This document shows, one piece after another, positions 2,564 through 6,629 of a DNA stretch of 64,000 bases. This DNA comes from Gammaproteobacteria bacterium (GTDB taxonomy: Bacteria; Pseudomonadota; Gammaproteobacteria; Eutrophobiales; Eutrophobiaceae). The notes under the pieces were generated by a model. It ran no database searches, had not been told where the DNA came from, and was given only the letters and a program-made list of their open reading frames with translations. The position numbers were made by a program, and so were the translations under genes. Position 1 is the first letter of the stretch. Every line of letters starts with the position of its first letter. Location of the stretch: contig OZ242265.1 in assembly GCA_965207165.1 (NCBI GenBank), positions 1,501,593 to 1,565,592 on the forward strand, given 5' to 3'.

Positions 2564-2618
2564 AGGTGCGGCTACACGGAGTCACAGAACCGAACCTGGC
2601 CCAGCCAGAACCAAAAGG

Positions 2619-2741
2619 TAATAAACGGTGCTGGAAGGGGGAATAGAAATACACTAATAACCTATTGTTCTTAAAGTGCTTTATATTATTCCCATGCTCT
2701 ATACCCAACGTTTATCCCAACAATATTTTAACCAATAAAGT
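2619..2741. repeat. Left copy of ~120-bp imperfect direct repeat bracketing the AbiE island (50-bp core ataaacggtgcYggaagggggaatagaaatacactaataacctattgttYtta)
   Basis: Near-identical core re-occurs at 6479..6531, with a diverged but alignable ~70-bp tail (tttatcccaac...ataaag) in both copies. Confidence 0.8.
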
Positions 2742-2932: not shown

Positions 2933-3727
2933 ATGGGTAGCCAACCTTCAAAAAGACAACAGCGATTAGCTGCATTAATACGCGCAACGTCCGGCACAAT
3001 CCGTGGGTCTGATGCCATGCGGGTTCTTGGCGTCGATCGGCAACATGCATCCAGATTGCTGGCGGGATGGCATAAACAAGGGGTTATCAGGCGGGTTGCA
3101 CACGGCTTGTATGTTCCTGTTCAGCCGTCTGCCCTGGGTCAAAAACAGGTGCTTGAAGACCCCTGGGTGCTGGTTCCCGAGTTATACACACCAGGTTACG
3201 TCGGTGGCTGGAGCGCCTTGGAACACTGGGGGTTGACAGAACAGCTTTTCCGGTCAGTCTGTGTACTTACTCCTAAGCGCGTGGCCAATGGTGTAATCAC
3301 TCATCAAGGTGTCAACTTCTTTATCAAACATGTCGCTGAAAAGCAATTATTCGGGACAAAATCCATATGGTTGGGAAATACGAAGATACTGATTTCAGAC
3401 CCATACAAGACACTGTTGGATTGTATCGATGACCCGGACCTGGGCGCAGGCTTGCAACATGTAACAGACTGCTTGCTCGAATTTGCGCGAGTGTTCAATA
3501 AACAGAGTGATCTTAATACATTATTGAAATATGCCATCCAATTAGGTAACGGCGCATTATTCAAAAAACTGGGTTACCTGGCTGAAACGCTTGAGTTCAA
3601 GCCTTCTTTTATCAATGCATGCCGGCAACGAATTACATCGGGTTATTCCACTCTCGATAAAAAGTCTGAAAAAAATCGTCTGGTTACACGCTGGAATTTA
3701 TGGGTACCGAGAGATAGGGCGAAATGA
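2933..3727 (+). CDS. abiEi: AbiEi-family type IV TA antitoxin/transcriptional regulator (AT-rich pair)
   Basis: 264 aa; N-terminal wHTH-like region plus HGLYVP / GGWSALEHWGLTEQ motifs typical of AbiEi (COG5340-like); stop overlaps the next ORF (ATGA). Confidence 0.65.
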   Translation: MGSQPSKRQQRLAALIRATSGTIRGSDAMRVLGVDRQHASRLLAGWHKQGVIRRVAHGLYVPVQPSALGQKQVLEDPWVLVPELYTPGYVGGWSALEHWGLTEQLFRSVCVLTPKRVANGVITHQGVNFFIKHVAEKQLFGTKSIWLGNTKILISDPYKTLLDCIDDPDLGAGLQHVTDCLLEFARVFNKQSDLNTLLKYAIQLGNGALFKKLGYLAETLEFKPSFINACRQRITSGYSTLDKKSEKNRLVTRWNLWVPRDRAK

Positions 3728-4101
3728 TTGTCAAGGATGAAATACTGGCTTTTGCCGACGAGACGGGTTTAACGCCGAACGTTGTAGAGAAAGACTATGT
3801 GCTCGGTTGGTTGCTCGCTGCAGTTAATTCGAACCCTGTCTTATCGCAATCGTGGGTATTCAAGGGAGGCACTTGTCTGAAGAAATGCTACTTTGAAACT
3901 TACAGATTTTCAGAAGATTTAGATTTCACGCTTCGAGATCAGAGTCATATCAATGAGACAGTTTTGAAGGAGCAATTCGTCTCCATTTCTGAATGGCTAT
4001 ATGAAGAAACAGGAATAGAAATTCCTTCTGACAGGCTTGTATTTGACATATATGCCAATCCCAGGGGCGGACAATCCTGTCAGGGGCGCGTATATTGCTG
4101 A
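3724..4101 (+). pseudogene. abiEii: AbiEii/AbiGii (DUF1814) nucleotidyltransferase toxin, truncated to 125 aa (full length would be ~300 aa)
   Basis: Has N-terminal VFKGGTCL nucleotidyltransferase motif but ends 2 bp before the stop of the convergent GC-rich AbiEii gene; C-terminal two thirds are missing. Confidence 0.6.
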
Positions 4102-5847: not shown

Positions 5848-6048
5848 GAGTCAAAACTTGTCAATATTTGCGGATATTGGGAGGATATTCCCCTTTATAT
5901 GGCATATATGTCAAGTATTTTATGCTGAAATTACTTGCCTGACCGTCTATCGCAATAAAAATTGACCCGCCTGTTACTTGACCTCTCTGGCACGGGATTC
6001 ACCCATTACCTGCTACGCCAGATGCTATTACTGACCCTCGCCCCGGAA

Positions 6049-6317
6049 CTAGTACTCTTTCAACTTAATATTGACATGTTCAGCGGGTCGGGAAGCGGTT
6101 GCGCGCAAGGCGCGCCGCGCAGGGAATGGCGCGTCCTTGCCAAGCGGCGTAACGCCGCGGGCGACCGCTTCCCGGCCCGCCCGCAGGGAGCCACACAGCG
6201 ACGCCAATACGGCGTTGCAGCCCTTGACAAGGGCGCGCCATTCTCTGCGGGCTGCGCCTTGTCTTGGCGTCGCTGTGTGGCTCTGAACATGTCAATATTA
6301 AGTTGAAAGAGTACTAG
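6049..6317. repeat. 269-bp GC-rich palindromic element with perfect 35-bp terminal inverted repeats (ctagtactctttcaacttaatattgacatgttcag) and nested internal inverted repeats; MITE-like or structured-RNA-like
   Basis: TIR 6049..6083 is the exact reverse complement of 6283..6317; internal pairs B 6084-6099/B' 6164-6179 (15/16), D 6191-6207/D' 6264-6280 (17/17), X 6120-6144/X' 6223-6247 (22/25); interior ~70% GC in an AT-rich setting. Confidence 0.85.
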
Positions 6318-6478
6318 ACACCTGTAAATTCAAGATTTCCGGTAAGTGCGTTAGATATCACTTCATGGACGACCTCCATCGTGACAACGCCGGTTAGATT
6401 GAGGTTCTTGGCTTTCACAATTTTGCCTGTATCGTTGTCTGTAACGGATTTGACCTTGCTGTTTGCCGGTAAAGAAGT

Positions 6479-6598
6479 GATAAACGGTGCCGGAAGGGGG
6501 AATAGAAATACACTAATAACCTATTGTTTTTAATGTATTTAATATCATCTCCTTGCCTTTTATCCCACGATTTTCCCAACAAGATTTGGATTGATAAA
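6479..6598. repeat. Right copy of the ~120-bp imperfect direct repeat bracketing the AbiE island
   Basis: See 2619..2741; 49/51 identity in the core. Confidence 0.8.
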
Positions 6599-6629
6599 GA
6601 CGAGCGATTTCAGAGCCAGTACTGCTATC

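Follow-up and report, generated by a model that had tools for sequence, protein, structure and literature searches.

A non-coding inverted-repeat element with a GC-rich, two-hairpin core in uncultured sponge-symbiont Gammaproteobacteria, probably mobilised by an IS5/IS427-type transposase

The element and its locus

The stretch of DNA analysed here (64 kb, hereafter the window) carries a strongly folded inverted-repeat element in intergenic DNA. It is located 313 bp downstream of a tyrosine-phosphatase gene and, on its other side, 201 bp upstream of where an AbiE-like toxin-antitoxin operon (a 267-aa ORF and AbiEii) begins; there is no indication at the locus of an effect on the neighbouring window genes. 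Its parts are listed in Table 1.

Table 1 Parts of the element and of its target site, in window coordinates
Feature	Position	Strand	Details
Window element	6052-6314		263 bp, 32-bp perfect TIRs; from empty-site comparison and flanks
Left TA target copy (TSD)	6050-6051	.	Forms CTAG with C at 6049 and G at 6052
Left TIR	6052-6083	+	32 bp, GTACTCTTTCAACTTAATATTGACATGTTCAG; perfect complement of 6283-6314
Hairpin module 1	6083-6180	+	Stem 6083-6106/6157-6180, loop X 6106-6157
Junction mini-hairpin	6181-6187	+	CC-GCA-GG within CCCGCAGGG; in all folds
Hairpin module 2	6188-6283	+	Stem 6188-6210/6261-6283, loop X' 6210-6261
Right TIR	6283-6314	-	32 bp; complementarity and covariation with the left TIR
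Right TA target copy	6315-6316	.	From empty-site comparison and flanks

The initial annotation described perfect inverted arms at 6049-6083 and 6283-6317, and these are indeed complementary at 35/35 positions. The 35-bp extent given to the terminal inverted repeats (TIRs) has to be shortened, because the outer three nucleotides of each arm are the duplicated TA plus the C or G of a CTAG target and therefore target DNA, which leaves the element with the limits and the TIR length of Table 1. The 35-mer occurs at two places only in the 64-kb window (0 expected, 100 shuffles), and the element is the single copy of its family there. Both internal stem pairs (B/B' and D/D') are real and longer than first noted, measuring 24 nt with 88% complementarity in hairpin 1 and 23 nt with 96% in hairpin 2, and so is the complementarity between loops X and X', which extends over 52 nt (81%). 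The interior is GC-rich as described (72%), the TIRs having 31% GC; the low-GC surroundings hold only for the adjoining intergenic DNA (41-44%), and since the whole window has 52.7% GC, the contrast is only local. Predicted folding energies lie far below those of shuffled controls, with -197 kcal/mol for the RNA (z = -16.6), -185 kcal/mol for the RNA of the opposite strand (both strands z about -16) and -124 kcal/mol for ssDNA, and an outer stem enclosing two hairpins is obtained for RNA of either strand as well as for ssDNA.

The view that no credible ORF lies inside the element was upheld, as no reading frame carries an excess of synonymous change and a Pfam search of the internal ORFs of the window element gave zero matches. 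Two minus-strand frames are open in 13/13 full-length copies (see below), which is expected at 72% GC. A coding role for them is not supported by the substitutions, of which 27 distinct ones are known and 26-33% (7-9/27) are synonymous in all six frames, with a neutral expectation of about 30% and hence without synonymous excess. No Rfam family could be assigned to the window element: the whole window gave 0 matches at the gathering threshold, the element at E<=10 matched nothing but generic hairpin models (miRNA precursors), with scores much lower than the cut-offs, and the loci of a sister family described below gave 0 matches at E<=1. The TTGACA facing inward in each TIR is present, but a -10 partner was not found; the sole match resembling a promoter, the hybrid TTGAAA(16)TAAATT at 6303-6330, faces outward. 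An independently promoted ncRNA gene, one of the options first raised, is thus left with neither promoter nor Rfam family to support it.

Other short repeats were seen around the locus. Directly upstream of the 267-aa ORF start, at 5852-5868, CAAAACTTGTCAATATT matches the inner TIR (CTGAACATGTCAATATT) at 14/17 positions; 0.17 such matches are expected window-wide and one is seen within 200 bp of the element, and CAAAACTTGTCAATATT is also present at the empty site of the metagenome contig L001 (see below). The motif TGGCATATATGTCAA / TTGACATATATGCCA, probably an antitoxin operator, lies upstream of AbiE-like operons at 4043-4057 and 5900-5914, also at 5975-5992, and has three copies in L001. 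A 16-bp perfect palindrome core, TATAGCATATGCTATA, occurs in five intergenic copies (23557, 25861, 33002, 44005 and 48528) and looks like the operator of one regulator acting over several operons.

Insertion, dispersed copies and a sister family

The metagenome contig L001, reached via the 267-aa ORF flanking the window element, has flanks 98.6-99% identical to the window on both sides and is devoid of the element. The empty site reads ggaaTTAGacacc, compared with ggaaCTA[GTACTC...GAGTAC]TAGacacc in the window, so that exactly 265 bp are missing, corresponding to the 263-bp element and one TA; the only other change is one adjacent T/C difference. This is the one empty site recovered. Taken with the TA duplication and the dispersed copies described below, it identifies the window element as a mobile MITE, bearing out one of the possibilities of the initial annotation, and the window copy is a recent insertion at its present site.

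More than 35 further insertion sites were recovered from three sponge-symbiont gammaproteobacterial MAGs and two Mediterranean sponge metagenomes, confirming multiple copies. A TIR 20-mer search gave 21 loci in the three MAGs, and a second 20-mer search gave 21 metagenome loci, mostly at contig ends and mainly from Sarcotragus foetidus (LXNI) and Aplysina aerophoba (MKWU) (PMC5099237); one metagenome match (L031) was rejected as a chance 20-mer. Diverged copies are held by further assemblies. Copy number in this sponge family is low, at about 5-10 per genome. Thirteen full-length copies each measure 269 nt between the outer C and G, with zero indels, 98% mean column identity and conserved ends (GTACTC...GAGTAC), and TIR positions 4-25 are invariant in all 13. 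Of the 11 copies first tabulated, seven are flanked by TA on both sides (TA/GTAC...GTAC/TA, slashes marking the element ends), and the flanks of the remainder are nearly all one transition from TA. A target duplication of 3 or 4 bases is ruled out by copies such as L013 (TTA/.../TAA) and L008.

Decayed copies were also observed, namely a 62-bp internally deleted copy (L018), truncated copies (L006, L007, L016 and L017) and remnants at orthologous sites of genomes about 94% identical (L003/L032). Decayed and shared old copies together with a polymorphic site imply that the family has been long resident and has also been recently mobile. A 164-bp TIR-hairpin 2-TIR form in a short-read MAG (L014, 2097-2260) was rejected as a true one-module variant; it is probably an assembly fold-back or chimera, because the long contig L037, 100% identical on that side, has a full copy.

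Side observations concern the CTAG target itself. CTAG is the most under-represented palindromic tetramer of the window (19 observed, 42 expected), and CCAG and CTGG are over-represented. Decayed MITE junctions mostly changed from CTA/G to CTG/G or CCA/G, and from C/TAG to C/CAG or C/TGG (seen in L002, L009, L010, L012, L018, L038, L042, L045, L048, L052 and L053), a pattern that very-short-patch-type repair is reportedly expected to give. At two MITE copies of chromosome OZ220696.1, a 1.62-kb IS (L004 5915-7534 and L015 2616-4236; TIR CAGTCTGTCGGACTTRGG; 452-aa DUF772 + DDE_Tnp_1 transposase; CTAG-flanked) occupies precisely the CTAG that the MITE end makes with its TA, so that MITE ends make rare CTAG targets for another IS. 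Perfect 27-bp TIRs (GTGATTTTACTCTGACCCCGGAATTCC) bound a further IS-like unit, about 1.45 kb long, on a Sarcotragus metagenome contig (L029 5716-7165).

A BLAST search of the window element gave zero matches in phages and one weak Halomonas match in plasmids, which led to a sister family of TA-flanked elements of 267-315 bp with members in Halomonas (L067), Pseudomonas aeruginosa (L068), Azotobacter (L069), Catenovulum (L070) and IMG/VR (L076). The element of Halomonas sp. PA16-9 is 267 bp long and TA-flanked, with a 20-bp perfect TIR (TAGGGCCTGTTGACGTTTCA), two hairpins with 19-bp stems and 51-nt loops, and a CCC-NNN-GGG mini-hairpin between them. On a P. aeruginosa PA83 plasmid the sister element fills the spacer from an acyl-CoA dehydrogenase gene to a CaiB-family gene; Azotobacter chroococcum plasmids (pAcX50f) also carry it, and the AT-rich Catenovulum adriaticum has a 315-bp version. 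These elements fold as the window element does, into an outer stem, hairpin 1, mini-hairpin and hairpin 2, and this shared architecture spans hosts of about 35% to about 66% GC while the TIRs differ. The CCC-NNN-GGG mini-hairpin motif is common to both families, its loop being reversed between sponge and Catenovulum elements on the one hand and Pseudomonas-type elements on the other. A sponge-family profile (nhmmer, 0.72 Mb) matched sister loop 2 with E = 3e-7 in L067, 6e-5 in L076, 2e-4 in L068 and 1e-3 in L069, and no spurious match of comparable score was seen in that search; by this similarity, loop 2 is homologous in the two families.

The parent of the sister family emerged from a scan for the sister TIR: a complete IS with this type of TIR occupies L077 7983-8844, with the structure C-TA-[858 bp]-TA-G and a single 249-aa ORF encoding an IS5-family transposase (NF033580, 277 bits; DUF4096 + DDE_Tnp_1). 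The transposase of a second IS (L075) is 76% identical to it, and this IS shares a contig with the L076 MITE, the termini being identical at 21/21 and 20/20 positions. Common sequence of sister IS and MITE is limited to the 18-25 terminal bases, so that the core did not arise from the IS by deletion, and the earlier suggestion that the window element is a remnant of a larger IS is not right, the core of the sister family being unrelated to its parent IS. Homologues of the sister-IS transposase are abundant in Pseudomonas, Azotobacter and Halomonas. A full-text literature search with the TIR strings of both families returned unrelated primers only, and no description of the sponge family or of the Pseudomonas-type sister family was found in the searchable literature. 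Among the primers listed in PMC12457610, a deletion primer for Legionella pneumophila lpg2920-21 ends in ...TTAGGGTCTGTTGAC, the sister-family/IS427-type terminus, and the deletion primers with this ending lie downstream of a Legionella toxin-antitoxin locus, which suggests that an IS427-type IS or MITE copy may adjoin lpg2921. A plasmid of Marinobacter sp. M3C has a solo TAGGGGCTGTTGACGTTTGG terminus (L071 3002-3300). From its opposite-strand translation, judged by eye, we take the sequence abutting this terminus to be a truncated IstB-like ATPase pseudogene (GPTGVGKT Walker A).

Conserved fold, possible role of the core and the candidate transposase

The outer stem and both hairpins are kept in diverged copies through compensatory change. 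Such copies (70-91% identity) were found via a protein-collection search with the translated open frame, which returned spuriously called ORFs, and ten copies from six subfamilies were aligned for covariation. The three-way fold is paired in 93% of the cells of this alignment, slid controls reaching only about 40%, and 30 of the 109 pairs are changed on both sides, a level reached by 0/500 shuffles. Compensatory pairs make up 15/31 of the TIR/TIR helix across subfamilies, 4/23 of the hairpin 1 stem (95% of cells paired) and 9/20 of the hairpin 2 stem (96% of cells paired), and RNAalifold independently gives the identical fold with 32 compensatory pairs. The kissing-loop or pseudoknot-like architecture first proposed for loops X and X' was not supported by this analysis, since two independent hairpins are the better reading by RNAalifold and by pair counts, and pairing of X with X' is weaker, with 82% of its cells paired and 6/47 pairs compensatory. 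It is also contradicted by one copy (L045 3974-4242) which, compared with its sibling L053 3974-4242 (MAG GCA_028823865.1), has hairpin 2 flipped with identical loop sequence. The flip affects the segment between the stem arms and turns X and X' into direct repeats, so kissing-loop pairing is not something that the family conserves.

Across subfamilies the inner five TIR bases are invariant and the TIR middle is the least conserved part (62-71% identity); hairpin 2 stems have 75%, loops 80-83% and hairpin 1 stems 85-88%, so loops and junction are conserved as much as, or more than, the TIR middle. G.U and A.C pairs occupy 45 and 36 cells, respectively, giving no strand preference. L046 3132-3390 and L047 2029-2343 are orthologous insertions, placed between the genes for T2SS E and F, and differ by internal indels bounded by a 24-nt repeat, ACCRAAAGTAGGCGCTTTAGGCGA, which is also present inverted inside hairpin 2 of L046 and resembles a nested mini-repeat in the MITE core.

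Insertions are intergenic and often fill the entire spacer between co-directional genes, leaving gaps of 2-10 bp. With gene sense taken from the longest flanking ORFs rather than curated genes, it agrees with the element minus strand (the element being oriented as in the window) in 19 cases and with the plus strand in five, two being mixed, and the 19:5 bias has a two-sided binomial P of about 0.007. Perfect TIRs cannot set the orientation of integration, therefore the bias would have to be post-insertion or linked to replication; the GC skew of the surrounding DNA leans the same way (22:11), so that transcription- and replication-linked explanations are confounded. Read outwards, the TIR ends are purine-rich (GAAAGAG, and GAAGGAG/GAGAGAG in other subfamilies), and the start codon of the downstream gene follows 1-4 nt past the element, 7-10 nt after the purine-rich motif, in six or more independent insertions. 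This spacing suggests that the element may replace the displaced ribosome-binding site of the downstream gene, its outward purine-rich ends acting as replacement Shine-Dalgarno sequences. More speculatively, the core might matter when co-transcribed in operons, as a long RNA duplex or a processing site.

It was considered whether the core is a functional structured RNA, such as a riboregulator, processing site or sRNA, or cis-acting folded DNA, under selection and merely spread by the TIRs. This possibility overlaps with the MITE explanation and does not exclude it, and we regard it as rather unlikely. The compensatory change in the outer stem and both hairpins of copies 70-91% identical, on which RNAalifold agrees, would fit such a role, as would an architecture persisting in hosts of about 35% to about 66% GC despite differing TIRs and the conservation of loops and junction at or above that of the TIR middle. 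The many copies filling operon spacers and an orientation bias that perfect TIRs cannot set point the same way. However, template-switch correction of quasipalindromes could preserve the complementarity of a DNA palindrome without selection and yield the same compensatory change. G.U and A.C pairs show no strand asymmetry, no Rfam match appeared even at E<=10, and no promoter was found in the element; moreover, one copy has an inverted hairpin 2, the sister family has the mini-hairpin loop the other way round, and the orientation tally comes from ORF-based calls and is confounded with replication direction. In a wider and equally doubtful proposal, the GC-rich three-way-junction core would be a selected, structure-dependent module of a TA-targeting MITE superfamily across Gammaproteobacteria, with hosts including sponge symbionts, Halomonas, Pseudomonas, Azotobacter and Catenovulum, the TIRs having been exchanged or having diverged and the fold and loop 2 having been retained. 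Such a module would act when co-transcribed, for example as a site processed by RNase III or in another way, or as an insulator, with the GAAAGAG/GAAGGAG ends giving the downstream gene a ribosome-binding site. If true, the proposal would account for the compensatory changes, for how closely copies fit the spacers of operons and for the 19:5 bias.

As to mobility, we consider it probable that the window element is a 263-bp MITE with a non-coding core which is moved in trans, most likely by a DDE transposase of the IS5/IS427 group. Movement in trans is proposed because the element encodes nothing; the transposase would recognise the 32-bp TIRs and insert the element at the TA of a CTAG-like site, duplicating the TA. 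The mobilising enzyme would most likely come from the IS427 group of the IS5 family, ISs of about 850 bp with 2-bp duplications, an assignment drawn from the core homology, equal size, TA-in-CTAG targeting and common architecture shared with the sister family. IS427-group ISs measure 832-865 bp and almost all have 2-bp direct repeats (PMC3281130), and the window element likewise has a 2-bp TA direct repeat at its insertion. A TIR match to an IS427-type IS holds for the sister family only (L076 with L075); BLAST of the window TIR with the L075 and L077 IS termini gave no significant similarity. No IS with sponge-type ends (GTACTCTTTCAAC.../...GTTGAAAGAGTAC) was seen in the window, about 0.7 Mb of related loci or viral contigs. 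Inverted-repeat scans of the window and all loci for a parent IS were negative, as was the inspection of ORFs adjoining solo TIRs for a parent transposase; tblastn of the 249-aa IS5-type transposase against the window and the sponge-symbiont loci gave no match, and degenerate-TIR scans of viral contigs were negative or gave chance matches. The 1.62-kb IS adjoining copies in L004 and L015 is ruled out as parent by its unrelated TIRs.

Mobilisation by an IS630/Tc1-mariner-family transposase, which we consider distinctly unlikely, would also account for the TA duplication within CTAG/NTAN sites at the window element and its copies, and IS630 itself prefers CTAG. TA duplication is a signature of that superfamily (PMC2170065), and the bacterial MITE RUP has been attributed to IS630-Spn1 (PMC2229807). 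However, IS427-group ISs too make 2-bp duplications (PMC3281130), an IS630-type gene was seen near none of the copies, and the termini of the related sister family are identical to those of an IS5-family IS, not of IS630; the IS630 reading was downgraded because the parent IS of the sister family belongs to the IS5 family.

The defence island around the window element has itself been rearranged. A direct repeat of about 128 bp (80%; window 2613-2740 and 6472-6599) bounds AbiEi/AbiEii cassettes, and in L001 (3210-5526) an additional 2.3-kb cassette, AbiEii(403 aa)/AbiEi, separates the phosphatase gene from the MITE target, where the window instead has a truncated AbiEii (3724-4101); AbiE cassettes are gained or lost here independently of the MITE. 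That the element is a cruciform or site-specific recombination site driving these rearrangements, as the initial annotation had allowed, is highly improbable, because the nearby 2.3-kb difference between window and L001 and the ability of hairpin 2 to invert are outweighed by cassette bounds lying in the separate repeat rather than in the element, and by the presence of the element at >35 unrelated sites, adjoining housekeeping genes.

Comparison with known systems

The window element has the hallmarks of a MITE, namely TIRs bounding a short (<~500 bp) element, a TSD with empty/filled polymorphism, dispersed copies and no coding capacity. The usual description of bacterial MITEs (PMC2229807, PMC10969869) is of AT-rich elements that end in TA and give stable hairpins in transcripts, whereas the window element has a GC-rich two-hairpin core.

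Similar to the window element, Correia/NEMIS of Neisseria are short non-coding repeats that are bounded by TIRs and end in TA, and they are often co-transcribed with neighbour genes, forming long hairpins that reportedly serve as substrates for RNase III (PMC2229807). Unlike it, Correia elements are 105-155 bp long and AT-rich and do not have a two-hairpin GC-rich core. Their TIR is presumably unrelated in sequence to the window TIR. RUP of Streptococcus pneumoniae is likewise a MITE inserted at TA and was assigned to IS630-Spn1 through TIR identity (PMC2229807). It differs in its length of 107 bp, its IS family and its unrelated sequence, while the window element has no TIR-to-IS match. REP/BIME (RAYT/Y1 transposases) resemble the window element as GC-rich extragenic hairpins forming mosaics in intergenic DNA, and REP stems carry a conserved GTAG-type 5' motif. 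As described in PMC2817692, REPs have no long TIRs, no TA duplication, stems of about 12-15 bp and copies in the hundreds; the window element, by comparison, has long TIRs, a TA TSD and a low copy number. The window element is thus neither a Correia element nor a RUP or REP/BIME.

The closest known systems are IS427-group ISs of the IS5 family and the MITEs that carry their ends, here the sister family. Like the sponge family, these MITEs have a 2-bp TA duplication in CTAG, a length of about 265 bp, an outer stem, two hairpins with roughly 20-bp stems and about 51-nt loops, the CCC-NNN-GGG mini-hairpin and a homologous loop 2. The TIRs, GTACTCTTTCAACTTAATATTGACATGTTCAG of 32 bp in the sponge family and GGGYCTGTTGACGTTT of about 18-21 bp in the sister family, have no BLAST-level similarity, and the sponge family, unlike its sister, is hosted by uncultured sponge symbionts. 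The transposase of the sponge family is accordingly likely, by this likeness, to be of IS5/IS427 type.

For annotation, the element is useful as a repeat that breaks sponge-metagenome assemblies, and it marks recent mobile-DNA activity in uncultured sponge symbionts. It also links an undescribed repeat of sponge symbionts to a MITE superfamily which is widespread, seems not to have been described before, and occurs on Pseudomonas aeruginosa and Azotobacter plasmids as well; the parent of this superfamily is an IS5/IS427-type IS. The sponge family is a new family of a known kind, ordinary as a MITE, and its only unusual features are the conserved structured core and the orientation bias. The folded GC-rich core shows unusually high conservation across distant bacteria. 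The superfamily conserves its core fold and not its TIRs, which is testable in cultivable hosts such as Pseudomonas and Halomonas and is the reverse of the usual MITE pattern.
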